DNA from: a virus
Taxonomy: Duplodnaviria > Caudoviricetes
IMG/VR virus record: IMGVR_UViG_3300047159_000056
Coordinates: 143,397 to 207,396 of that record
Strand: one strand, 5' to 3'
Length of the DNA stretch: 64,000 nucleotides
Of the stretch, positions 5,090 through 62,891 are shown one piece after another; position 1 is the first letter of the stretch; the number at the start of each line of letters is the position of its first letter. A program made the translations under genes and the position numbers. The notes under the pieces were generated by a model. The model was not told the DNA's origin, did no database searches, and worked only from the letters and a program-made list of their open reading frames with translations.

Positions 5090-5476
5090 TTATTTCTTAA
5101 GATTTATATCCACAATAGAACAAAACCCCTCAAGTTCTATAATTTTCTTAACTAAGCCAAGAATATCTTCATACTTTAAGGTTCCATTCATTGTCATAAG
5201 TAGCATAGTTCTTGTTGCATTCCCAGTATTTGTTCTTATGAATCTATTTGCACTTCTAATATAGTCATCTATATCATATTGATCGTAGTCCATATCTTCG
5301 GGAATATATATCTTTATGCCATCTTTCACTCTTTGATCTGGAATAATACTAATTGTGTCAGTAGGGATTTTTCCAACTACTTCATAATCTTCTATCTTTT
5401 CCTTATCCAGATCCCTAACTAATTTATCTATCATTGCTCCAGATGAGTAAGAATATATTTTTTCTAAGATCATCAT
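5090..5476 (-). CDS. Leader-family virion protein (MMILEKIYS)
   Basis: ORF with N-terminal KxYS motif. Confidence 0.55.
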   Translation of the reverse strand: MMILEKIYSYSSGAMIDKLVRDLDKEKIEDYEVVGKIPTDTISIIPDQRVKDGIKIYIPEDMDYDQYDIDDYIRSANRFIRTNTGNATRTMLLMTMNGTLKYEDILGLVKKIIELEGFCSIVDINLKK

Positions 5477-6768
5477 TTTTCAAATATATTAGGTTTCTCT
5501 CCACTAGACATAAGTTTCTTTAAGACAAAATCAAACTCATTTCTGTTTTGAATACAATATGTATATACTGTAGCTTTACCAATAGTGGACTTTTTTACTT
5601 TTCCACCAATTAATCCTTTAAATGATTTTTCTACTTTTTCTTCTTCCTTACTTCCACTAACTACTGAAACCATAAAAACTCCAGATACTAGAGAAATATT
5701 AATAGGACATTTAGTATCACCAATTGTATAATTAAATCCCTCAATATAATGTAAGTTGCCTAATCTTGATTTTAGAAATTCGTTATTAAAGTCCTGTGCT
5801 CTTGCTGGGAGACCTGCTTTAATTGCTTCATCGTTTCTAAGTTTACTAACACCAGAGTTTAGCATTTCAATTACTGATTCAGAAATAGCTTCTTTAGGAC
5901 CACCTCCAAAACCAAAACCTCCTACTAAACTACCAATACCATTAGAAATAATTTTAATGATATCGTATTTATTCAATCTTCCAAGTCCACCAACATTAAA
6001 GCTAAAGGTTTTTTCTTGATCACTTCCATCTCCCCCAGCTAAGTTTTCTTGATTTGGATATTGAAAATTAGTAGATGCATCCTCTAATCTTCTAGATATA
6101 ATTGCGTTATTATCAAGAAGATTAATTCTAGTTCCAAGTGTACTGCTAAGCTCCATTATAAAGTTACATATCACCTGATAATTAGTAAAGGTTATATCTA
6201 CTGCATAGGCCAAAGCTCTAGCATTTATTACTTTAGAGCTATATTCCATACTAAAATATTTCTTGCAATAATAGTCTAGAGTCTTATCTACTTTGTTAAA
6301 TTCATCTTTAGTTAAGCCAAATGTATATAAGGTAACTGTATTGTCGTGAATAGCTATGTTAATTTTATATTTAGAAACATCCCTATCGTTAAATTCAAAT
6401 TTCTCACTTATATTAGCTCTTCTATCTATACTATCTCCAACAGTGATGCCAGATACTTGATAAACTCCAAATTGTCTTCTAATGGCTTTATCAACTTCCT
6501 GATATTTAACATGATTCATTGGCTTGTGAAGATAATTAACAAAGAATTTAGCTGCTATACCAGATAGAAAACCAGCCTTAGCTCCAGTTATTGCATCGCT
6601 TATAATATGACCATCTCTGGATATTCCACCAACTAAGCCACCAATTCCAGCTCCTGCAAAAGTTCCCTTCGCTGCTAGTTCTGCTGCTCCAGGTATGTCT
6701 TCCATATCTTTAGGACCAGTATAGTGTCCCTCGGGTATAGTATAATTTTTTATTCTAAACTTAATCAT
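5473..6768 (-). CDS. Leader-family protein with glycine-zipper segment (MIKFRIKNYT; internal EKTFS)
   Basis: GAGIGGLVGG glycine zipper; leader motif. Confidence 0.6.
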   Translation of the reverse strand: MIKFRIKNYTIPEGHYTGPKDMEDIPGAAELAAKGTFAGAGIGGLVGGISRDGHIISDAITGAKAGFLSGIAAKFFVNYLHKPMNHVKYQEVDKAIRRQFGVYQVSGITVGDSIDRRANISEKFEFNDRDVSKYKINIAIHDNTVTLYTFGLTKDEFNKVDKTLDYYCKKYFSMEYSSKVINARALAYAVDITFTNYQVICNFIMELSSTLGTRINLLDNNAIISRRLEDASTNFQYPNQENLAGGDGSDQEKTFSFNVGGLGRLNKYDIIKIISNGIGSLVGGFGFGGGPKEAISESVIEMLNSGVSKLRNDEAIKAGLPARAQDFNNEFLKSRLGNLHYIEGFNYTIGDTKCPINISLVSGVFMVSVVSGSKEEEKVEKSFKGLIGGKVKKSTIGKATVYTYCIQNRNEFDFVLKKLMSSGEKPNIFEK

Positions 6769-6777
6769 AATATATAT

Positions 6778-7404
6778 TTATCTTCTTACAGGTACCATTC
6801 CAGTTGGTACACTCATCCTACCATATCCACTTTCCATAGTATTACCTATAGACTTAATGGTTGTCTTATTATTTCTTAGAGATTTGCTAAAGTTAGTTTT
6901 GCCATACCTATCAGATACTTTTTTCATAGCCCTAATGGCTCTATTTGGCATAAGAGGAACTTTTTGAACTACTGGAATTGCTGCACTATAACCAGGAGCA
7001 GTTAATGCAGCGCCAACAGGACCACCAATAGCTAAACCAACTGGAGTAGTTACTTGAGATGCAGCAGCTACTATTGCTACGTCAGGTCTTTGTATAGCAG
7101 TCTTTATTCCATTATCAACTACTCTTCCTATTGGAGTATTAACTACATTATTTACTCCTTGTTTTATTTCTACTGCTTCCCTATTAAGAGCCACTCCCTT
7201 TTTAGGAGAAAATCTAAATGCATCCGCAGGACTATTAACTGGCCTCTTTCCAAACATCCCTTTTACAGTTCTTTTGACAGAATCTCCAGCTCTTAAACCA
7301 GCATTATCTATCTTAGTCATGGTATTAGAATTGGCTAGTTTTCTATATTGTCTTACTAATCTTAGCGATTTGCTAGAATAAGTTTTATCTCGTAATATTA
7401 TCAT
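6778..7404 (-). CDS. Leader-family basic protein (MIILRDKTYS), paralog of 7411-8025
   Basis: Shares MTKIDNAGL and VVNTPIG..VD.GI...I.RPDVA with its neighbour. Confidence 0.7.
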   Translation of the reverse strand: MIILRDKTYSSKSLRLVRQYRKLANSNTMTKIDNAGLRAGDSVKRTVKGMFGKRPVNSPADAFRFSPKKGVALNREAVEIKQGVNNVVNTPIGRVVDNGIKTAIQRPDVAIVAAASQVTTPVGLAIGGPVGAALTAPGYSAAIPVVQKVPLMPNRAIRAMKKVSDRYGKTNFSKSLRNNKTTIKSIGNTMESGYGRMSVPTGMVPVRR

Positions 7405-38943: not shown

Positions 38944-40257
38944 CTATTTATCTACTGTTGAAAATTCCTTCTCAATTGTCAACATTGCTTTCTCATTTTT
39001 TACCTGAGAACTATCCAATGTGGGACCGAGTATAGTTTCTTCTCTCCAGTATCTAGAAATTTTTTCGCTCAAATTTATCTCAGAATCTATTCTCTTTCTG
39101 AGACTTGTTGAGACTATCTCTACTTGTTTTCTATACTTTCCTACCAGGATAGATAGAGAACTAAATGAGATGTAACTACTGTCTATGTCAAAATTTACCA
39201 GACCTAGTGCAGTATTATCTTCTTCGATTGGGAAAATTTTTCCCAACTCCTCTACAAAATTATGGTCTTTATAGATTATTCCAACCTCTTCCAATTTATT
39301 AAAAGGGTTGAATCTCTCTATCAAATTATGACCTTCCTTCTGATACTTAACCAATCCAATTATTTTTCTACAACTATCCATAGAAAAAACATCTGGATAT
39401 AAGTTAGCGAGTGTGACAAGTTTTTTATAATCAACCCTATCAAACTCTGGCTTGAAACAAGTTTCCCTTACTGATTTAAGCAAGTTATCTACACTCTCAT
39501 ATCTTGAACTACTTAATAGTAATCCACCTATTATGAATAGAAGATACTTGTCTGATTCACTAATATTAGAAACCTCTTTTCTTACTATCTTTATTTCTTT
39601 CTTTTCTTCTTGTTGAACCGGAGCAGTCTCACCAATAAACTCTCTATATTTTTCAGATATGTTATGGTGAACAATGCTACAATTCATTATGTCTACAAAA
39701 CCATCTCTATTGCTAGAAATATACTTAATCTCAATGCCAGTACGAGCTTTTACACCCTTAATAACTGTATCAAACTTAGAGATGGTCATATTGTTTTTTC
39801 CAAGAATTTTTCCCATTCTAGACAGAGAAATTCTACTGTGCTGATCTTTCTTGGCCTCTGCTAAGAGTATCATCACTTTCTTAATCTCCTCGTCTGTTGG
39901 GATATGATTTCCTCTTCCACGTCCTTTTATTTTTTTTGTCTTGGATGTGGAACTCTTCTCCTTTTCCTCAGGCACTACATAAGTCCCTATTGAATAGACA
40001 CTCATCATATTTCTTTGCCCAAGCTTTCCTCTTTCTGGATTGATAACTTTTTTCTCAGATACAGAATACCTCTTTTGAAGTAATCCAATGATCTGATAAT
40101 ATTTACCAGAATTCGTAATTTTTCGCAATCCAAAAGCCTTATTAGCTTCATCTATGATCACGAACATTCTTTTTCTAGATACCTCTCCTTCTTGAGATAT
40201 CCTCTTACATACAGCGTTATAATAAAGCGCTGTTCTTCTGTTTTCTTCTTGTTCCAT
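38944..40257 (-). CDS. Hypothetical basic protein, possibly DNA-binding
   Basis: 437-aa ORF. Confidence 0.6.
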   Translation of the reverse strand: MEQEENRRTALYYNAVCKRISQEGEVSRKRMFVIIDEANKAFGLRKITNSGKYYQIIGLLQKRYSVSEKKVINPERGKLGQRNMMSVYSIGTYVVPEEKEKSSTSKTKKIKGRGRGNHIPTDEEIKKVMILLAEAKKDQHSRISLSRMGKILGKNNMTISKFDTVIKGVKARTGIEIKYISSNRDGFVDIMNCSIVHHNISEKYREFIGETAPVQQEEKKEIKIVRKEVSNISESDKYLLFIIGGLLLSSSRYESVDNLLKSVRETCFKPEFDRVDYKKLVTLANLYPDVFSMDSCRKIIGLVKYQKEGHNLIERFNPFNKLEEVGIIYKDHNFVEELGKIFPIEEDNTALGLVNFDIDSSYISFSSLSILVGKYRKQVEIVSTSLRKRIDSEINLSEKISRYWREETILGPTLDSSQVKNEKAMLTIEKEFSTVDK

Positions 40258-40543: not shown

Positions 40544-40709
40544 TTCATTTTTTTTGTTTAACTCACATATAAGGGTTTGGGATGAAAAAATAAGAAGAGG
40601 ATTTTACACCTCTTCCTGTTTTAGTTTCTTCTTTATCCACTTATTAATAGTGGGTTCTAATTCTCTAAATATTTTATTGAATGAGAAGACTGCAATTCTC
40701 TTCAACAGT

Positions 40710-41054
40710 TTAATTATCTCTGTATTCATTTGCTTTATCTTCCTCCTCTCTAAACCTATCGAGATCATCCCTATTTCCAATTGAATAAAGAATATCTCTT
40801 ACGATTCTTTTTAATCTCCTAATTAATTTTATTGGAGGCATCTTATTTAGAATTCCTTCCATCATAAGAACCTTCTCCCTTATATAGGAGATCTCTTCCT
40901 GTGCGGCTCTCTCTCGCCACCAGTTTATCTCGGCTTCTCTATATTCTTTGTCGAAGATAAACTTTAACTTATGCGCAATGGCAGACCCTATGGATCCTCC
41001 TATTGCCGCCACCACTAATGATAGGATGGCCTCTACTATTCTTAACTCAATCAT
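40710..41054 (-). CDS. Membrane-anchored hypothetical protein
   Basis: N-terminal TM segment; lies downstream of the hammerhead. Confidence 0.55.
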   Translation of the reverse strand: MIELRIVEAILSLVVAAIGGSIGSAIAHKLKFIFDKEYREAEINWWRERAAQEEISYIREKVLMMEGILNKMPPIKLIRRLKRIVRDILYSIGNRDDLDRFREEEDKANEYRDN

Positions 41055-41135
41055 GTTTTTTTCATAATTTTTTTGTTTTAAAATTGTTTGTTATATTGTC
41101 TATGTCAGGTTTCTATAATCTTTAGTATATACTAA

Positions 41136-41203
41136 TGAACATCTGTTTCGATCTATAATTGATCTCTTCAGTCTAGGAGTTTAACCTAGATACAGTTTGT
41201 TCA
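41136..41203 (-). ncRNA. Type III hammerhead ribozyme
   Basis: UGAACA-aa-CUG-UA^-UCUAGG(uuaaacu)CCUAGA-CUGAAGA-GAUC(aauuaua)GAUC-GAAA-CAG-a-UGUUCA; all core nucleotides and all three stems are present. Confidence 0.9.
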
Positions 41204-41246
41204 AAATTAAAATGGAGAAAGAGTATTAAACTCTCTCCCCAAATTT

Positions 41247-41444
41247 TTATTCTTCATTATCGCCCCTAAATGGAGCATCTTCGCTCCAATAGAAAGCATA
41301 TAGTATCATCAATACTATCCCGGCGTTTACTGCGCCGAGGATATAGTTGATCCATAATTCTGTTGTATTATTACAGATTATGATCAGATTTAATATAATT
41401 ACCGCGATATAAAACCATGGTAAATTTACTTCTTTCTTTTTCAT
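41247..41444 (-). CDS. Small 2-TM membrane protein
   Basis: Hydrophobic 65-aa ORF. Confidence 0.55.
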   Translation of the reverse strand: MKKKEVNLPWFYIAVIILNLIIICNNTTELWINYILGAVNAGIVLMILYAFYWSEDAPFRGDNEE

Positions 41445-42312
41445 ATTTTTTAATTTTAATTGTTATTCTCTTCATTAAAAGGAGCCCATTTAAGAGCTCC
41501 TATAGTTGTTGCTTATGCATCCAAGACTTCTATGAGCCTTAGTTGGATGCTCTTAAAAAAAATTATAAATTTTCATTTTATATTTTTTAAAAGTTATTTT
41601 CTCCATTAAATTGGACCTATGATTTCTCTTCATAGGATTTCTATATTAGAATTATATCCTCCCTCAAACCTCTTCAGTTTTTGTTTTAGATATAATAGGA
41701 TTGCTGTATACTTTCCCGTTCTAATAAATCCACCCTCTTACTAATATATGTTATGTGATACAGTCACATTATACATAATTTTCTGAGTTCATCCCTGTAC
41801 AAGGATTACTGTGTTTTTTGATCCAGCAATTATTAACTCTTCATTAATAACCCTATGATCTTGCTTTAATATTTCCTCAATATTAAAATTTTATATTTTG
41901 TTATAATATGTAGGCAAAAAGCCAATAGCCTCTCGCTCTACTATATTATGTCTCCAACCTTTAATACGCTGCCAGCCTATAAAATATACAAAGGTATAAC
42001 AACTCCTTCTTTCTGACTATATATGTCATAAGTATATTTTGTTTAGCATTTTTACATTGCTGGCACAATGCTGAGTATGTCATTCTCAGTTGTCCTTATT
42101 AGATTTACCCTAAACCACCTTTAGCATGATCTTAATAAGTTAGTGTTATTCGTTTCAACACACATATAAAAATTAATAGAATACTTTAATTTTTCAAAAG
42201 TACTCTAGGAAGATTTCGAAAGATACTAAGTCTTTCTCTCTCCACATATAAGGGTTTTTTGCCATTCCTAGACGGAAAAAAGAAGAGAGCTATTTCTCTC
42301 TCCTTATTACAA

Positions 42313-42885
42313 TTATAGGCTACAAATATCGTCTATTCCTCCTAAGTTTTTTATTTTTCCTTTAGTTCTTAATCTATAGCAAACCTTATTATAATTTCCG
42401 GCTCCATAGATATATAAGAGGATAAATTCTTTCTTCTGTCCAGGTTTATGAAATTTTACTACTACATAATTATCTTCAAATTCATCGTAGTATTCACCCC
42501 AAACTTTTTCTAGCTTATAATTAGTTACTTTGCTTTTTACAAACTTATATAGATCCACTAAGTTTCCATTAAAGTGATTTTTAGTTAGAACCATCTTAAT
42601 TAACCAAGCTGCTATATCTTCAGGATCTTCTTGTCCAAATAGATTTAGTTTAAGATATGGGTTCTTAGTACCTCTCTTCTTACTAATTAATTCAACTTGA
42701 GAAATTTTATCATCTTTCTCAATTGGATATTTCTTTGTCTTAGAATAGCTATAAACCACAGTATAATCTACCCATGGTCTCTCAAGTACTCTAAAACTAA
42801 ATTCATTATCAACTACTTCTGTCCAGTCCATAAGAAGACCGCCCTCTATTAAGTTTTGTAATATTTCATTGGCACTAGTCATCAT
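42313..42885 (-). CDS. Hypothetical protein
   Basis: ORF followed by a terminator. Confidence 0.6.
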   Translation of the reverse strand: MMTSANEILQNLIEGGLLMDWTEVVDNEFSFRVLERPWVDYTVVYSYSKTKKYPIEKDDKISQVELISKKRGTKNPYLKLNLFGQEDPEDIAAWLIKMVLTKNHFNGNLVDLYKFVKSKVTNYKLEKVWGEYYDEFEDNYVVVKFHKPGQKKEFILLYIYGAGNYNKVCYRLRTKGKIKNLGGIDDICSL

Positions 42886-43938: not shown

Positions 43939-44631
43939 TCACTTTTTCCTCAACTCAAAGATTTCGTCTATACCAAGTCCGTGATATATTTTACTTCCTA
44001 TATTTCCAGAATAACTATGATGAAAATGTCCATAAAACCAATATGAAAATCCCATCTCTCCTATGATACTGGTTAGGTAGGGTTCGCTCAGATACAATAG
44101 AGTTATAAGTTTCTTCTGTCATATCACGGTCTCTAAAACTACAGGTTCAAATGATATGGGCGCTGTATGGGAGACAATTATATCTGCTCTCCCGGGATAT
44201 TTATCTACTCGTTCAATTTTTTCTCCTTCCCAGAAACACTTAGTCTTTATCTTTTTCTGAGCTTCTATTCTAGCTGCTTTGTCAATAGAAGTAGCTCCAC
44301 CAATGGGATATATACTCCAACCAGCAATATTAACTAGTTCATGGTCCTCTAAGAATTTTAATCTTGGATAGTCATGTTTTCCATCAAACCAAGCTGGATC
44401 ATCATGATTTCCTCTAATTGTATAAAGTCGTATATCATTTTTCTCCAACCTCTTAAGTACTCTAGAATACATAACATCCATAGACTTAGGACGACCAAAA
44501 CCTACTCCAAAATCTCCACAAACGACTAGGTCAATATTGGTAGCTTTATATCTTTCGGTTATAGTCCATACAAGTTTTCTTAATTCTCCATGTATATCCC
44601 CACAAAAATAGATAGACTTCTTCTCACTCAT
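43939..44631 (-). CDS. Calcineurin-like metallophosphoesterase with a frameshifted C-terminus
   Basis: GDIHG, GDFG, RGNHD, SHTAP; the final WFYGHFH motif lies past the annotated stop (44119) and needs indel correction. Confidence 0.8.
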
Positions 44632-54872: not shown

Positions 54873-54905
54873 CCGCCTAGGAAGATATTAAACGCCTTAT
54901 ATATG
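54873..54905 (+). promoter_or_regulatory. Bipartite promoter CCRYC-N17/18-CCTTATATRTG (first of at least 12 copies)
   Basis: Core box at 54895, 55135, 55416, 55680, 56021, 56313, 57447, 61063, 61645, 62230, 62727, 62836 (+) and 40564, 42243 (-). Confidence 0.75.
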
Positions 54906-54950
54906 AAAGGAATACAATAGTGTAGTTCCTTAATTTAAAGATAAAAGAAA

Positions 54951-55079
54951 ATGAAAAATATTTTTAGAGATCTTAAGTTTAGTGAAATAGACGAAGATGA
55001 TAAACAGGTAGAGGAAGAAAAACCTAGTAAGAAAGTGTTAGATTATTTGTTTGCTCCAGATAAATTTAATGGAGCATAA
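54951..55079 (+). CDS. 42-aa acidic early peptide (MKNIFRDLKFSEIDEDD...)
   Basis: Has its own promoter, leader hairpin and terminator. Confidence 0.6.
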   Translation: MKNIFRDLKFSEIDEDDKQVEEEKPSKKVLDYLFAPDKFNGA

Positions 55080-55191
55080 AAATAGAAGGGAAGTAAAATT
55101 CTCTTCTTTTTTTCACCCAAAATATATGCAGAATCCTTATATGTGAAAGGAGGATAATAGTATCTTTCCTTAATTTAAAAAAATAAAAAAT

Positions 55192-55332
55192 ATGATTAAT
55201 AATTTAATCAATTTATATTACTCAGAGATGAGACCAAATTTAGACGGCCCTCCTGAGAAATATAGAAGAGGACGAGAATCCGGGATTAGTAGACCGAATT
55301 ACTTACAAGTGGTTTCCATGGTATTAATATGA
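55192..55332 (+). CDS. 46-aa early peptide
   Basis: Has its own promoter, leader hairpin and terminator. Confidence 0.45.
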   Translation: MINNLINLYYSEMRPNLDGPPEKYRRGRESGISRPNYLQVVSMVLI

Positions 55333-55424
55333 TCATGGACAAAATTATGTTTAAAAGAAGAGGAGAAGTAAAATTCTCTTCTTTTTTTTTCTTCCGTCTT
55401 AGAAACCCGGGAAAACCTTATATG

Positions 55425-55657
55425 TGATAGAGAATAATAAAATAAAATCGGCGACGAGGTCATAGTGCACTCCCATAGAGGAGACGAGCAGCAGACCACC
55501 CGGTAATCTCTCTATCATATTTATGATGATCAAGTCATAATCCAGTGGCAATAGCGCAGGGCCACACGCGAGGATTACGGCCGCCAAGATCATCAGGGGA
55601 GCCAGTTCCGCAAGTCCCTAGTATGGATATCGAACTATAACTGGCTCCCAATTTTTT
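55425..55657 (+). ncRNA. GC-rich structured ncRNA candidate with three hairpin domains
   Basis: Follows the promoter at 55416; no + strand ORF; TGATAGAGA/TCTCTATCA, TGATGATC/GATCATCA and GGGAGCCAGTT/AACTGGCTCCC helices, then a U-tract. Confidence 0.65.
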
Positions 55658-55731
55658 CCGTCCCAATAATATATAGGATCCTTATATATGAGAGATAATA
55701 ATGTCCCCTCATAATTTAAAATTTAAAACAT

Positions 55732-55956
55732 ATGAGAATGTTTAAGGAAGTCTCTTTCAGAGAAGTGAATGAGACAAAGATAGACTGGAACACAATATTA
55801 CAGGGAGTTCCAGTTACAAAAGAAAATATAGAAAAGGTTAGACAAGCATTGCAGCCTGAGAATAATAAACCAGAAGAGGATGATCTATTTGTAGATCGAT
55901 ATCCTGGTAACTATGAAGATCTATCGGACGAAGAACTAAATCGTCCCCCTAGGTAA
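55732..55956 (+). CDS. Small acidic early protein
   Basis: Cassette gene. Confidence 0.65.
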   Translation: MRMFKEVSFREVNETKIDWNTILQGVPVTKENIEKVRQALQPENNKPEEDDLFVDRYPGNYEDLSDEELNRPPR

Positions 55957-56073
55957 GTAAGTAAAGAGAGAGGGACAATTAAAGTTCTTTCTTTTTTCCA
56001 TCTCAATTTATATATAGGATCCTTATATATGAAAGATAATAATGTCTTTCATGATTTAAAAATAAGAAAAAAT

Positions 56074-56248
56074 ATGAGCAAAGGATTTAGTGGGATCTTT
56101 GAAGATGATAAAACAACAAAGATCAACTGGAATACAATACTATATAAAACAGGGGTATTCCAAATACGAAAAATAATATAAAAAAGATAAAAACAGGCTA
56201 TCCTAAAGCCTGTGGGAGTGGGGAAATATATTTTTTGAAACCTACTAG
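56074..56248 (+). pseudogene. Frameshifted paralog of 55732-55956
   Basis: TKINWNTIL, then after a shift GIPNTKNNIKKIKQA, versus TKIDWNTILQGVPVTKENIEKVRQA. Confidence 0.55.
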
Positions 56249-56371
56249 AAAGAGAAGAGAGGACAATTAAAGTCCTTTCTTTTTTTCTTCCGTCTTAGAA
56301 AATAAATAGGATCCTTATATATGTATGAGAGAAGCAATAGTGCAAACTCTTAATTTAAAAATTAAAAAAAA

Positions 56372-57388
56372 ATGAAAAAGATAAATGAAAAAACGATTCT
56401 TACACCGAATGATAGTAGGAACCTGAGAGTCGTAGTTGCTGAAGACTGCGACACTAAGAATTTATTATTTGGGTTACAAGAACCTGGATATAAAATTGAT
56501 GATGAATTTTCTGATTATATTGGTAAACACGATAGAATAATCAGGAATGCCCCTCTGCCAAGATGGTGCAGGGAAGAATTAGACCTAGGAAAATGGGTCA
56601 TGATAAACAAAATTGAGTTTGACCCAGAGACCAGATGGGTAAAGGTCATAGGAAAAAGCGATTGGCCAGAAGAATCAGAAATAGAAACTGACCCGAAATG
56701 GTCAATAAGATCAGAGGGCAGTAATTTTTATAAAACGGCCATTCTGACAAAGAGAATTGATAGAACGACTAAGATATTTGGTCAGGAAATCGAGGATTAT
56801 AGGTTCAAGGACGTTGAAAAGATTAAATGTCCATATGATACCTCTAGTGGGTATTGTGATAATCCAGCATACAAGAAAGAAAGTATTGGCTGGACAATAG
56901 GGGAACCAGAAATAGATGACAAAGGAACAGTAGTGTGGCTATTTAGAGACCACATGCTGCTTCATGAAATCAATGTTAAATTTACAACAATCTGGAAAAT
57001 AAAAGAGACCAGAGTTTCTAGTTGTAAGTTTGACGAAACAACAAAGACTTGGGGAGAACCTGAGTTCGAGGATAACGTAGTAGAAAAAGAAATAACTACT
57101 ACGGTCTACGGCGACGGCAAAAAGGTATGTAGTTGTGGAATAAGCGAAGATTCAGCACCAGCAAAAGAAATAAATGCTAGAGCTGAAGAACTAAAATCTA
57201 AAGCTCTGTATCTGATGGAAAAAGCTACAGAGTGGAAGGAAGAACTCCTTTCTGAATGGGAGGAGTGTACAGGTAAAGAGGAGAGTGAAGACCAGAGAAG
57301 AATGTGTGATACTTACTCTACCTATAGAAAATATAAGGTAGAAGCTAAGTCTGAGCACTTAAACTTCAATGGGATGGTCACTATCTAG
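56372..57388 (+). CDS. Hypothetical early protein
   Basis: 338-aa cassette gene. Confidence 0.7.
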   Translation: MKKINEKTILTPNDSRNLRVVVAEDCDTKNLLFGLQEPGYKIDDEFSDYIGKHDRIIRNAPLPRWCREELDLGKWVMINKIEFDPETRWVKVIGKSDWPEESEIETDPKWSIRSEGSNFYKTAILTKRIDRTTKIFGQEIEDYRFKDVEKIKCPYDTSSGYCDNPAYKKESIGWTIGEPEIDDKGTVVWLFRDHMLLHEINVKFTTIWKIKETRVSSCKFDETTKTWGEPEFEDNVVEKEITTTVYGDGKKVCSCGISEDSAPAKEINARAEELKSKALYLMEKATEWKEELLSEWEECTGKEESEDQRRMCDTYSTYRKYKVEAKSEHLNFNGMVTI

Positions 57389-57586
57389 ATATATAAAGGA
57401 GAAGCAGGAAGAAAAATCCTGCCTTTCTTTTTTATTCCCCTAGGTTCCTTATACATGATGAAAGAGAGGAGAAATTTTTTTACCTATCCTTTTATAAATT
57501 CAAAACTGGAGAAAGATGGATCGCGATGGTTAGTCTTTCTCCTTAATTTTTGCTCCTAGGATAAATAAAAATCCTTATTAGTAATT

Positions 57587-57889
57587 ATGAAACTAAAGAA
57601 ATTTTTTAAACTGCACTTCTTATATAGATTGGCAGAAATAAAGTCAAAGGAAAACTATCTAGAAAAAGGAATATATATAACTCCTACACTGGATAATATA
57701 AGCGAACCAGATAAAGAATGGATAAGAAAAGAATGGGATAAGCTAGAAATTAAAGAGACAAAAACAGACTTCGAAAAATTTAAAGACATAGAATCAGTGG
57801 TAATCCCAATTATGTACTGCTCTACACTAGCCATTATATTCTTCCTAGCCGCTATCCTCTATATAACTGGCAATATCCTAAGAAACTAA
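57587..57889 (+). CDS. Protein with a C-terminal TM segment
   Basis: ORF. Confidence 0.6.
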   Translation: MKLKKFFKLHFLYRLAEIKSKENYLEKGIYITPTLDNISEPDKEWIRKEWDKLEIKETKTDFEKFKDIESVVIPIMYCSTLAIIFFLAAILYITGNILRN

Positions 57890-57913
57890 AAAAGAAAAGA
57901 GAGAGAAGATAAA

Positions 57914-58273
57914 TTATAAATCTTCCCTCCCTATTTTTTCTCCTAGAACCAAACTATCAAGATCATGTAAGGTAAATCTCTTAAACTCTTCCTCTATCTC
58001 CTCTCTCCACTCAAACCAATCATTTCCTTCAATCTTAAACTTCCTATATCTACACCTAAGAGCAGTTTTATGAGCCATAGTCGCACCCTCTAGAAAAACC
58101 TGAGAAACTATAACCTTACCAGAAAACTCCCTTAATGTCCTCTTCACATTATTCGTAAATCCTATCCTCATCTTATTATTGTCTAACCTAATTAAATATA
58201 TAGTACCTTTCATATCATTAGTAAGGATTTTTAGCGGGAAAATAAGGAAGAGACTTTTTATCGTCCCTTCCAA
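57914..58273 (-). CDS. T5orf172/GIY-YIG-like domain protein (start probably near 58213)
   Basis: GTIYLI...RIGFT.NV..R and EGNDWF. Confidence 0.65.
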   Translation of the reverse strand: MEGTIKSLFLIFPLKILTNDMKGTIYLIRLDNNKMRIGFTNNVKRTLREFSGKVIVSQVFLEGATMAHKTALRCRYRKFKIEGNDWFEWREEIEEEFKRFTLHDLDSLVLGEKIGREDL

Positions 58274-58281
58274 TTTTTTCT

Positions 58282-60449
58282 TTAATTTTTTAACCTCTTA
58301 AGTAATTCAAAACCATGTGACCTTTTGTTATTTATATCGTATACAAAAATGTCTTTAATATCAAACCACCCACTAATATCTGATGCTTTTGCTTTTTTTA
58401 TATATTTGCATTTGTTATAAATATCTTGTAACTTTAACTTTAGATCAGCTTTAGAAAATTTATCTCCTTCTTTATAGAAAGCATAAACTTCTTTATCTAA
58501 GACAGTCAGGTTATTCTTTATAAACAGATTATCAATTTCCTTATCTAGTTTTACTTTGCTATACCCCAATGATCTTATTTTTGGTGCACCTAGGATATCA
58601 TAATAATTTCCATAAATAGGAGGAATTCTAGAAAATAAGATCTTAGCCTCCAATGGTTTAATATTAGAGTCACATAAATATTTCATCTTATTATAAAAGT
58701 TATCCAACATATTAAAACAATCAATAATTCCATTAACCCTCTTTACCTCAATTGAATCAAATCTATTATCAATTGCGTTAAACACTGTACACCTGTCAGC
58801 ATAATCTACTTGTTGAATGTCAAATGCTCTCTGTTCTGCTACTAAGACTAGATTATTAAATACGGCTACAGGAACTCCACCAGCATGTCTATTTAAAGCT
58901 AAATAGTCATCCCTATAATTATTAACCTTAATATTCAACTCATAAAGTTTAGCTGAGCCTAATTGTTCCTTACTGGATATCTTATTCCAAATAGATAGAT
59001 AAGTATTAGTGCTCTCAGTTTTCTCCTTGATCTTACTATCAAATTCTTCCTGTAACTCCTTCTTGTTTTTCCTAATTGGATTAAAATAAATAGTAGCTAT
59101 ATATTTCCAAGGATTTTTATCATTCCTCATTCTTCCTAAGATCTGTGGTAGGTCTATAGAAATATCAATAGCAAGACACTCTACGTTCGCATCACTAAAT
59201 ATATAAGGTCTTTGCATTGTCTGTATAGAAAGTCAGCACCTAAGTAGACGGTCCTTGTACAAAAGGTAAATAGTTTCCATTCTTCATCTGGTAGAGGAAC
59301 AGATCCTATATATTTATTTGGATCACTTGGCTTAATCTTAAATGCACTTCTAATCTTCTTCTCATTTTCAGAAGTATCAGCACATAAGATATTACATTCA
59401 TCTGGAGTAAGCTTTAATCTATTAATAAGACTACATATAGAAACAACTGAATTAAAATATAAAACAGCATGCTTTGGAGGAATGATTATTATTTTTTCAG
59501 TATAAGGTTCTTTGTATCTATAACATTCTTCTGGTCTAAAACCATCTTCACTTCTAAACTTTGTAATAATTTCCTCAGCTTTTCTTAACATTTTTGCACA
59601 AGGATAAGATTCAATAATAGGATGAATTACTCTTTCCTTATCTTCTTTTTCCCAATCTAACTCTATGTAAGGAAGATCTTTGAAATCATCTAACTGATCT
59701 AAGTATTTTTCTAACATAGGAGTAGCAGATACATAACAAACTTTAGGATTATCTTGTAAGTGTCCAACAAACTCCATCTCTGTTGAAGGCTTGAATCTAG
59801 AATCCGTCATCACTGATTGGAACTCATCAATAACTATATGAAATCTATCATATACTCCAATCTCTTGCAAAGCTTCTTTAACCTTCCTGAAACTATCATA
59901 AGTAACTAAGATCTTACAAGGCTTAGCAGACTCTTTATTAACAAAAGGATCAACTTGACAAGACTTCCAATGATCCTTTACCTCATTCTTAAATTGAACT
60001 AAAGCATTTAATCTTTTCTCTGCCTCTTGCTTAGCTAATTCTATTTCCTCAGGTGTAGGATCTTTTTTAAATATCTTATCTTTGCTTTGATACTTCTTTT
60101 CATTTTTCTTAGTATCTGATATATCTTTGTCCACTTCCAAAGAAATATCCATAAATTTATTCTTGACATACAAAACATTGAGATCTTTCTTATGTTGATC
60201 AGCTTTATTTTGTAAGAGAATCTTTCTTGGACTACAAAGAATAATATTTAAGTTTGATGTAATAGCCCACTCAGTAAAACCACATCCTGTTAATTTCTTG
60301 TCAATTATACAGGGAAAATCTGGTAAACTGAAATCTTTCCAATCCGATAAATATTTTATACCTCTTGGAACATTTTTTATTATCTTTTTCATATTTAATG
60401 ATTTTTTTAATTCATATTTCCTGGCGAAAGGAGTTTCCCCAGTATTCAT
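58282..60449 (-). CDS. SF2-helicase-like protein (origin-binding type), split by frameshift(s) near 59200-59230
   Basis: LTGCGFTE, IDEFQ, SATP, TRTVYLGADF, then IFSD...DLPQILGRMR (motif VI) in the second ORF. Confidence 0.7.
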
Positions 60450-61096
60450 AATTAAGGTTTCAAACTATTTTATAGAGGAATTTTTGACTATTTTTTACCT
60501 CACAAATGTCTGTATCTAATGGAATACAAAAAATAGATATGGACAATTAATTTTAAGTCTATCTAATTTTACTTTAATTTAAATATTTATCTGATCTCCC
60601 CTCCCGAGAGGAGGAGATCAGGGCTTACGCAAATATTAATGTAAAGTAAAGATAAAGGGAAATAGATCTACATAGTCCCTTTCTTTAAATATAAAATATA
60701 GGCTGATCCCCGCCCAAGGGGGATCAGGCGTTGCTCTATTTAATATTAAAGAATCATACACTCTTTGGTCGTTCCTCCCAAAGAGCTCACAGAATCCTCC
60801 CTTCGGTCGTCTTCTGCTCATTCCAATGTAGAAATTTAATATAATCTTTTTTATATCCAAATAAAAAGATATATTTAAATTTGCATATATGAATGATTAA
60901 GCCTGTATAAATTGGGAAACTCCTAAGTGGTTAGGGTTATATTCAAGTTTAGAAAAGATTTTTGAGAGCCAATATACGACTGCGCCGCTTTTTTAAATTG
61001 TATATTTTTGGCCAATTCCTCCAATAAAGTCTACATTTTCTTTTGTGATTTGTATTTCAAACCCTTATATATGTAAGAAAAACAAATAGAAAAATT

Positions 61097-61591
61097 ATGA
61101 AAAAGATTATTATGATTTTGATGATGTTACTAGTGGGAGTATTAGGAACATCAGCCCAAAGAACATACCAGGGCATAAATGGTAGTTATGTATCAATTAT
61201 AAGTCAGTTTAAGAGAGCTGGCTTAGTAGTAGATAGGAGTAATAAGAAAAAGAACTGTACCGGGTTATATATACCTGGGAAAGATGATTTTTACTTAGTA
61301 GTTTGGAAAGGAGCTGGAGGAAAGATTATGTCCGTTGTGGAAATTTATAAGTTTGAATGTAGAGCTTATGGATTAATTAAGACAAATGAGATAGAGGATG
61401 AATTTAAGGCGCATGGGATGAAACCAAAGAGAGTAGTTAGAGGTGGTGAGCCTTATGATGTCTATAAAAGTAAGTTCAGAGGAGGAAATTATTGTAGTGT
61501 GACTGTTAGTTGGCCACAGAGTTTAAATAATCCTGATCCATTCAACGGTTATAATTATTTAGTAATGCAGTTTTTCTATCCAACTAGGTAA
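61097..61591 (+). CDS. Secreted/periplasmic protein, paralog 1
   Basis: SPI signal peptide ...GTSA|Q; shares KFRGGNY and FYP with its neighbour. Confidence 0.75.
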   Translation: MKKIIMILMMLLVGVLGTSAQRTYQGINGSYVSIISQFKRAGLVVDRSNKKKNCTGLYIPGKDDFYLVVWKGAGGKIMSVVEIYKFECRAYGLIKTNEIEDEFKAHGMKPKRVVRGGEPYDVYKSKFRGGNYCSVTVSWPQSLNNPDPFNGYNYLVMQFFYPTR

Positions 61592-61676
61592 ATAAAATTG
61601 AGGGGAGTGATGAAAAGTCTCTCCCTTTATTTTCATCTTAGAACCCTTATATATGTAAAATAAAAAAGGAAGAAAA

Positions 61677-62162
61677 ATGAAAAGATTTATTATTATTCTG
61701 ACTATGTTAATGGGAGTGTTAACAAGTCAGGCGCAGATTAAGTTGATTGGAATTGGAGACAGTTTCAATAGTATGGAGAGGTCTTACTATGCATGTGGTA
61801 TGGACCTTTACGAAAACACCAGGAGTTATAAGAGTTTTACTACTGGTGATGAGGTAGTTCTTATCTTGTACAAGGATGGACAAGGTGGGATAAAGAGAGT
61901 GACTGAAAGACATTACGCCATTAATAAGAAGGAGGCGTTAGAGGTTCAGTCAAATATATTCTATACCATGAGCAATCAAGGTTTAAATCTTAGATCTTAT
62001 AAGTGGATAAAAGAAGGAAAAGGATACAAGAGATTTTATAAGAACAAATATAGGGGAGGAAATTATGCTGACGTTTCAATAGGAGGGCCAGTAGATACGG
62101 GTCTCTCAGATGATGTCTTATACAATTATTATGTAGACTTATCTTTCTATCCATCAAAGTAG
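61677..62162 (+). CDS. Secreted/periplasmic protein, paralog 2
   Basis: SPI signal peptide ...TSQA|Q; KYRGGNY, FYP. Confidence 0.75.
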   Translation: MKRFIIILTMLMGVLTSQAQIKLIGIGDSFNSMERSYYACGMDLYENTRSYKSFTTGDEVVLILYKDGQGGIKRVTERHYAINKKEALEVQSNIFYTMSNQGLNLRSYKWIKEGKGYKRFYKNKYRGGNYADVSIGGPVDTGLSDDVLYNYYVDLSFYPSK

Positions 62163-62280
62163 GTCTAAAAGAGAAGGGGAAGGTGATATTTAGCCTTTCC
62201 TCTTTTTCCGTCTGAGAAGATGTTTATTTCCTTATATATGAAAGATAATAATGTCTTTCATGATTAAAATATAAATTAAT

Positions 62281-62568
62281 ATGAGTGAAATAAAAAATGA
62301 AGGTGGTTATACATATATTAAAGACCACGGTAATTGGTTTCAAGTAGATGATAATATAGATGTTGATAAAATAAAAGGTGGAGAAATATTTCTTTTAAAT
62401 GGTGATATTGTAAGAGCTGCTACTGTTTATATGAGTAATAGTTCTAATAATTGTTCTTTATGTGATAGAAAAGAATGTAAATTTTTATGTCCAAATAGAG
62501 TTCATTGGTATCGTCCTGGAAATATTTTCTTTACAACAATGGCAAAAAATGTAAATAGATTTATATAA
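62281..62568 (+). CDS. Small Cys-containing early protein
   Basis: Cassette gene; CSLC..C...C. Confidence 0.6.
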   Translation: MSEIKNEGGYTYIKDHGNWFQVDDNIDVDKIKGGEIFLLNGDIVRAATVYMSNSSNNCSLCDRKECKFLCPNRVHWYRPGNIFFTTMAKNVNRFI

Positions 62569-62569
62569 G

Positions 62570-62682
62570 ATTAGCTACAGCAATTAATATTTATAATTGA
62601 ATGCCGTAAAACCCACAGGTCTTTAGCCTGTGGGATGTAAGGCACTATCGGCAGGGACTGTCGATTACACCGATGGAGAGGA
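62570..62682 (+). mobile_element. IS200/IS605-like remnant (terminal hairpin plus tnpB 3'/omega-RNA-like fragment)
   Basis: CCCACAGG-tcttta-GCCTGTGGG hairpin; flanks read ATAINIY and LSAGTVDYTDGE, reminiscent of TnpB C-termini. Confidence 0.5.
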
Positions 62683-62891
62683 TAGATCGTGACGATTAGT
62701 CCTCTTTTTTTTCAACCCCGGGAAAACCTTATATATGGAAATTATTTTATAACAAAGTCAAATGTCGAGGAAAGGTGGACTGTGAAGTTAGTCTTTCCTC
62801 ATTTTTTTTTCGACCGTCTAGAACTACAATCTTACCCTTATTAATAGAGAGTGGTAATAGTGCCAATCTCTAATTTAAAAAAAAAAGAAAA

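Follow-up and report, generated by a model that had tools for sequence, protein, structure and literature searches.

Hammerhead ribozymes are well known in phages. In phages and prophages, they flank single genes and cleave both in vitro and in E. coli, and their proposed role is to divide long phage transcripts into messages of gene length (Perreault 2011, PMC3088659). The type III hammerheads of bacteria, prophages and phages (PMC3088659; Rfam clan CL00010, RF00008) have an 11-nt core, an A15.1–U16.1 pair, an NUH cleavage site and three helices of which stem III is open, and they lie in intergenic regions, in the sense direction, before a small phage gene. A difference of two base pairs between stems I and II has been linked to pseudoknots in this type (PMC3088659). 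In E. coli, RiboJ, which consists of the type III hammerhead of sTRSV and a 23-nt hairpin, removes leaders and increases the levels of transcript and protein (PMC6206723, PMC8794103). In the haloviruses HF1 and HF2, an early polycistronic transcript has a variant hammerhead at its 5' end (PMC3088659). The role of bacterial and phage hammerheads is still unproven, and a defined unit such as the one described here makes the question testable.

The element of interest lies on the minus strand at 41203-41136 of a 64,000-nt stretch (the window) of an IMG/VR virus contig, which is linear, 207,396 bp long and 56% complete by estimate. The virus is an uncultured jumbo (giant) phage. Almost none of the proteins of the record match PHROGs, and the nearest cellular relatives of the phage ClpP are ClpPs of Bacteroidota. 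The ribozyme is located between two small genes, a 65-aa ORF and a 114-aa ORF, and is oriented in the sense direction within a long run of minus-strand genes, in agreement with the minus-strand assignment made previously in a sequence-only reading.

Judged by its structural features and by covariation, the element belongs to the known type III hammerheads of bacteria and phages. It has the core, the A15.1–U16.1 pair, the type of cleavage site, the three helices with an open stem III and the intergenic, sense-oriented position before a small phage gene that characterize this group, and the role proposed for it, cutting of long phage transcripts, is also the same. Unlike the described members, it falls below the Rfam thresholds, is present as a single copy instead of a flanking pair or triple, and has no evident loop-loop pseudoknot. 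Like RiboJ, it combines a type III hammerhead with an immediately following hairpin ahead of a translation start, and its cleavage is predicted to strip an upstream leader and to leave a structured 5'-OH end. On the other hand, it is natural, its hairpin has only 12 nt and it has no sequence relation to sTRSV, so that the resemblance to RiboJ is a functional analogy and not membership. As in HF2, the cut would define the 5' end of an mRNA, whereas the HF2 hammerhead has core insertions and a mapped transcript end, and the window element has a canonical core and a predicted end. It most likely cuts one long transcript into two messages, a habit already known of phage hammerheads, and does not represent a new kind of element. 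The particulars of this case are a defined unit with a single ribozyme, conserved flanking hairpins and a neighbouring candidate for a large RNA.

The hammerhead fold and its rarity

Read from 5' to 3' on the minus strand, the element consists of UGAACAAACUGUA, the predicted cut, UCUAGG-uuaaacu-CCUAGA, CUGAAGA, GAUC-aauuaua-GAUC, GAAA and CAGAUGUUCA. It runs from the 5' strand of stem III through the cut site, the stem I hairpin, the core, the stem II hairpin and GAAA to the 3' strand of stem III; stems I and II are closed by loops and stem III is open, which is the topology of type III. The 5' strand of stem III (UGAACAAACUGU, 41192-41203), assigned from sequence and fold, ends with G16.2 and U16.1, and it is paired in every relative despite sequence differences. 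It is followed by A17 (41191), a non-G residue at position 17, and U1.1 (41190), between which cleavage is predicted from the core consensus, at the very position that the sequence-only reading had given. Stem I (41172-41190) is a hairpin of UCUAGG, the loop UUAAACU and CCUAGA with six Watson–Crick pairs. The core C3-U4-G5-A6-A7-G8-A9 (CUGAAGA, 41165-41171) is invariant in all relatives. Stem II (41150-41164) has four base pairs between GAUC and GAUC, closed by the loop AAUUAUA, and the G10.1–C11.1 pair that had been claimed for it is found at 41164/41150. G12-A13-A14 (41149-41147) and the 3' strand of stem III, again assigned from sequence and fold, make up ACAGAUGUUCA (41136-41149), with GAAA spanning 41149-41146 and A15.1 (41146) paired with U16.1 (41192). 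Stem III comprises four pairs plus an extension. All core-adjacent stem pairs are Watson–Crick pairs and every consensus nucleotide of the hammerhead is present. In all, the complete core CUGAAGA/GAAA, the GUA triplet, the 6-bp stem I, the 4-bp stem II and the extended stem III are present as had been stated.

At minimum free energy, the isolated 78-nt stretch adopts exactly this three-way junction (−17 kcal/mol, z −2.4), which is retained when the element is folded in a context of 221 nt (z −3.9). Its three helices conform to published acceptance rules, which allow neither a core-adjacent mispair nor multiple mispairs in short stems (PMC3088659). Despite a difference of two base pairs between the lengths of stems I and II, no loop-loop pseudoknot is evident in the element. 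Loop I (UUAAACU) and loop II (AAUUAUA) could form at most three A–U pairs, and both are unconserved among the relatives. A search of the window element and its relatives, in which the loops range from 3 to 16 nt and differ freely, found no conserved complementarity between loops I and II and no conserved tertiary-contact motif. A tertiary contact that joins stem I with stem II is needed for fast hammerhead cleavage at physiological Mg2+.

With our own descriptor, no type III match other than the element was obtained over the full 207,396-bp record, and a credible type I or type II hammerhead was not found in the record. When the genome was shuffled with preservation of dinucleotides (n = 300), a single match with stems of at least 6/4/4 bp was obtained, corresponding to about 0.003 per genome, and 23 matches were obtained with looser stems of at least 4/3/3 bp. 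This rarity is insufficient by itself, since many windows were scanned. Of 123 sites in viral contigs where GUA, CUGAAGAG and CGAAAC are suitably spaced, only 10 proved to be complete hammerheads. The family model R1 detected no second copy in the record. Three other sites were considered and rejected. A type I-like match on the minus strand at 57659-57730 of the genome, outside the window, is weak (4/3/3 bp) and was judged to be due to chance; its stem II has two G–U pairs and encloses a strong GGGGAGAG hairpin. Neither CUGAAGA at 41678 nor the junction at 42272-42203, which overlaps the promoter-like motif, forms a hammerhead that could serve as a second ribozyme.

No Rfam family reached its gathering score over the window. 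The search with Hammerhead_3 (RF00008; gathering threshold, 48.5 bits), which the sequence-only reading had named as a check, gave no match in the genome either at the gathering score or at E<=10. Hammerhead_1 (RF00163) gave 20.8 bits at the ribozyme against a cut-off of 34, and RF02276 had no match on the whole record. An E-value search of Rfam around the site and over 41000-42400 returned only Hammerhead_1 below the cut-off and noise. The gathering threshold of Rfam is a database criterion, not a structural one.

Relatives and covariation

Relatives of the locus were found by means of the ClpP-like prohead protease encoded 2.3 kb downstream. They form a series in which ClpP is 85% (contig L142), 72% (L146) and 65% (L152) identical, and lower. 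Each of these three contigs carries a syntenic type III hammerhead, located at 6090-6161 in L142, at 382-449 between a 62-aa and a 57-aa ORF in L146, and at 23-99 before a 138-aa ORF in L152. Hammerheads with the same stems I and II were found on two other contigs, L160 and L161, by a pattern scan of metagenome contigs; L161 is a more distant relative, with a helicase 43% identical to that of the window.

The cleavage triplet is GUA in the window, L142, L146, L160 and L161, and GUU in L152. Stem I is formed by UCUAGG/CCUAGA in the window and L142, by CUUAGG/CCUAAG in L146 and by UCUAGU/ACUAGA in L152. The sequence of stem III differs in each lineage while its pairing is always retained, and stem II is retained with a loop of 5-10 nt. 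Inspection of the raw sequences by eye is enough to recognize individual compensatory changes. A covariance model seeded with five members recovers L152, which is outside the seed, at 28 bits. In an alignment of seven sequences fitted to the model, one of them a paralogous copy (alignment A4), all pair cells are paired (93/93) and compensatory changes on both sides are found in 7 of the 14 pairs. None of 500 shuffles reached the observed values, and sliding of the partners by 1-3 columns left 27-43% paired. This comparative conservation, together with the covariation, is the decisive evidence for the predicted hammerhead, and there is little doubt that the element at 41203-41136 is a real hammerhead of type III.

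Other collections yielded little. No match was obtained by blastn against a phage GenBank collection, and no close relative was found in IMG/VR through the 437-aa protein encoded near the locus or through ClpP; alignment of ClpP in the phage and IMG/VR collections reached no locus above 43% identity, and the contigs obtained by two further ClpP searches were too short to include the region. Homologues of the 437-aa and 114-aa proteins are almost lacking, one distant homologue of the former being on a 2.5-kb contig that lacks the region. Eight metagenome contigs encode the same 114-aa protein, and they are more than 99.6% identical and thus give no covariation information. A pattern with fixed loops and free stems had no match in viral contigs, and the family pattern had none in viral contigs and bacterial genomes.

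The proposed transcription unit around the ribozyme

A phage-specific promoter-like motif (CCTTATATGTG) is located on the minus strand at 42243-42253. It belongs to a recurrent motif, CCTTATATRTG, of which the window contains 12 copies where 0.21 would be expected, two on the minus strand (42243-42253 and 40564-40574) and ten on the plus strand (54895-62737). Copies throughout the genome are intergenic and lie immediately behind terminator hairpins and a TTCCGTC-like box, ahead of small genes, and the motif presumably acts as a promoter. Scans for sigma-70 promoters and for Bacteroidetes-type promoters (TTTG...TAnnTTTG) revealed no enrichment. The minus-strand copy at 40564-40574, after the terminator at 40617-40592 and before a 79-aa ORF, has the same position in L146 and L152. 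In L142, the motif is kept before the conserved structured stretch. No copy exists between 42253 and the 114-aa ORF in the window, nor between the ribozyme and the 114-aa homologue in L146 and L152. Having no motif of its own, the 114-aa gene would therefore depend on transcripts that begin at 42253 and traverse the structured stretch, then the 65-aa ORF, and finally the hairpin and the ribozyme. The promoter at 42243-42253 that had been claimed is strengthened by the excess of motif copies and by its conservation in L142, and the claimed polycistronic unit starting from it by the lack of a copy before the 114-aa ORF and by the order kept in L142. Co-transcription and processing by the ribozyme are well supported in silico. 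In other cassettes of the phage a terminator is followed by a promoter, whereas here a hairpin is followed by the ribozyme.

Nucleotide identity between the window and L142 reveals two conserved islands in fast-evolving DNA, in which the genes are 40-65% identical. The first island (41234-41120, 77-85% identity) corresponds to the ribozyme and two flanking hairpins. On its upstream side lies the 65-aa ORF (41247-41444, minus), which has two hydrophobic segments. Its place is taken in L142 by an ORF of 56 aa and in L146 by one of 62 aa, both similar in size and character, with 24-28% identity. The ORF is followed by a stable hairpin of 12 pairs and then UUUUAAUUUU (41213-41241, minus), which was picked up as terminator-like by a terminator scan; the ribozyme is thus situated, as had been claimed, after a hairpin trailing a small membrane gene. 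In the window and L142, the stem of this upstream hairpin (41241-41213) is G+C-rich and followed by a U-run like an intrinsic terminator, and it could stop most transcripts before the ribozyme. The hairpin is also kept in L146, and because the U-run is missing there, its conserved feature is the stem and not the terminator tail. Such a stem would shield the upstream cleavage product at its 3' end.

On the downstream side, a small hairpin of 12 nt (UAGUA-UA-UACUA, 41123-41134, minus) begins 2 nt past stem III, folds in context and is followed by a conserved AAGAU stretch. AGUA-N2-5-UACU plus A(A/G)AG is common to L142, L146 and L152, and the letters of the stem are nearly fixed. The hairpin was found only once in the genome and is therefore no general motif. 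The 114-aa ORF (40710-41054, minus), proposed as the gene served by the ribozyme, has its AUG at 41054, 81 nt past the ribozyme, close to the 80 nt given in the sequence-only reading. Its product has an N-terminal glycine-zipper-like hydrophobic helix and has no match among PHROG or Pfam families. The ORFs that follow the ribozyme in the four lineages (the window, L142, L146 and L152) are homologous, the identity being 42% in L142, 46% over 41 aa in L146 and 29% over 31 aa in L152. The next gene, the 79-aa ORF, is likewise homologous, and the order of ribozyme, 114-aa gene and 79-aa gene is constant in the four lineages. A terminator-like hairpin detected by the terminator scan (40592-40617, minus) ends the unit. 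The GGAGAGAG hairpins turned out to be ordinary terminators that lack a common element downstream.

In L142, genes for a helicase, a deoxyribosyltransferase-like protein, YAcAr, a phosphoesterase and others are followed by a 190-aa gene and a long gap, and then by a 56-aa ORF, a gap, a 116-aa ORF, a 76-aa ORF and ClpP. The E/K-rich 437-aa gene that lies between the 79-aa ORF and ClpP in the window (38944-40257, minus) is missing in L142, where ClpP directly follows the 76-aa ORF (6995-7001); L146 and L152 have genes of similar size (416 aa and 457 aa). Farther upstream in the window, the metallophosphoesterase gene at 43939-44631 (minus) appears split into ORFs of 170 aa and 52 aa. The near-identical contigs L013, L017 and L018 have one 231-aa metallophosphoesterase gene, and the split is likely to be a frameshift or an assembly indel in the record.

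The second island is an ORF-free stretch of about 580 nt (41600-42181, minus), recognized by conservation and folding, about 400 nt upstream of the ribozyme. Its homologue in L142 is at 5283-5862, and the two are 73-88% identical at the nucleotide level, against 40-65% for the flanking genes, with one variable hairpin insert. The single-sequence fold of the stretch has a z of −4.6, and RNAalifold on the two sequences, window and L142, gave 126 pairs, 12 of which show double compensatory changes. No Rfam family was found in it at E<=5, no further homologue was found beyond L142, and blastn and nhmmer gave no similarity to an ORF-free stretch of L161. The stretch is a candidate for a new large structured phage RNA or a giant leader. 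Neither this conserved structured stretch, which fills most of the leader, nor the two flanking hairpins as conserved elements had been included in the sequence-only reading.

Proposed processing and alternative readings

We propose, with a probability of roughly 0.7, that the locus contains an active-type type III hammerhead within a single transcription unit, and that its cut frees the 114-aa message from the upstream RNA. The unit would consist of the promoter motif (42253), structured RNA of about 640 nt, the 65-aa ORF, the stable hairpin and the hammerhead, followed by the small hairpin, the 114-aa ORF and the terminator (40617-40592). Polymerase reading through the upstream hairpin would transcribe the ribozyme, which would fold and cut itself between 41191 and 41190. 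Hammerhead cleavage leaves a 2',3'-cyclic phosphate and a 5'-OH. The cyclic phosphate of the upstream product would be about 22 nt past the protective hairpin, and the downstream 114-aa message would begin with a 5'-OH and carry the stem I and stem II hairpins, the extra small hairpin and an A-rich leader before its AUG. Cleavage of this kind would make the promoter-less 114-aa message independent of the long structured RNA upstream in its stability, folding and translation, and the ribozyme would occupy the slot that holds the promoter in other gene cassettes of the phage. We infer that the unit is transcribed and cleaved in vivo, with ends of this nature and with an effect on expression. By analogy with RiboJ, the 5'-OH end and the 5' structure may alter stability or translation.

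The unit is informative in that it combines a recurrent promoter motif with a terminator and with a lone ribozyme exactly at the promoter slot of the other cassettes, and in that the conserved hairpins to either side of the ribozyme recall the engineered RiboJ insulator. Phages, to judge from this design, may employ hammerheads to separate a message from long structured RNA upstream of it.

The same arrangement can be read from its other end. The ribozyme might mainly serve the upstream RNA as a termination-independent maker of 3' ends, releasing an RNA of about 1 kb (structured domain and 65-aa ORF) with a hairpin-protected cyclic-phosphate end, so that any effect on the 114-aa gene would be secondary. 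The 580-nt upstream stretch is the best-conserved DNA of the region and has compensatory changes, the hairpin without a U-run in L146 suits 3' protection better than termination, and one hammerhead of L161 comes directly after an ORF-free stretch of 850 nt. However, the L161 stretch has no sequence similarity to that of the window, the upstream RNA could be checked in L142 only, the contigs of L146 and L152 ending too early, and in each of the four lineages the ribozyme is linked to the gene downstream; we regard such a predominantly upstream function as rather unlikely. A broader proposal, which we put forward tentatively as possible and not as probable, includes both products. The hammerhead would be the 3'-end maker of an undescribed large structured phage RNA (the 42181-41600 domain within a transcript of about 1 kb from 42253), with ribozyme and protective hairpin replacing termination, and the same cut would launch the promoter-less membrane-protein message by a natural RiboJ-like module. 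If this were true, a jumbo phage of Bacteroidota, with which the phage may be associated, would release a large non-coding (or dual-function) RNA by self-cleavage.

Activity itself can be questioned. The fold might be conserved and yet non-catalytic in vivo, serving as a structural element of the 5' leader (an RNA stabilizer or a protein-binding platform) with the hammerhead core retained for folding, as might be suspected from the highly variable loops, from the Rfam scores below threshold and from the failure to identify a tertiary contact joining stem I to stem II. The core, the A15.1–U16.1 pair and the non-G at position 17 are nevertheless invariant, while the neighbouring proteins are just 29-46% identical, and selection for cleavage would be expected to keep catalytic positions invariant in this way. 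Moreover, nearly all of the consensus-matching bacterial and phage hammerheads that were tested did cleave (PMC3088659), and an inactive fold therefore seems improbable to us. The position of the hammerhead might also reflect the history of a mobile, hammerhead-capped small-gene cassette of which it is the border. This idea draws on L160 and L161, where hammerheads with identical stems I and II flank other small genes in arrays of at least three ribozymes, and on unrelated phages, which have type III hammerheads that resemble the window element and share its stem II. It is difficult to reconcile with the single hammerhead of the 207-kb record, which leaves no bracketing pair, and with the constant order of the ribozyme, the 114-aa gene and the 79-aa gene in four lineages, and we consider it very improbable. 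That the element merely matches the hammerhead consensus by chance in AT-rich intergenic DNA is hardly credible: many windows were scanned, loose core patterns do match by chance (complete in 10 of 123) and the Rfam thresholds are not reached, but the strict descriptor expects only 0.003 matches per genome and syntenic copies with compensatory changes exist in at least three diverged relatives. The freeing of the 114-aa message by self-cleavage remains our preferred reading.

Hammerheads were also seen elsewhere in the contigs surveyed. At least three type III hammerheads flanking single small genes are present in L160 (1213-2258) and L161 (12-603, minus). The 850-nt ORF-free stretch of L161 (6560-7440 in minus orientation) contains repeated modules with further CUGAAGA...GAAA cores. 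Complete type III hammerheads are found on the unrelated viral contigs L001 (10279-10346 and 12878-12945), L004, L077, L079, L111 and L117. They are mostly intergenic and sense-oriented, often 11-27 nt before the next ORF, and some of these contigs have two.
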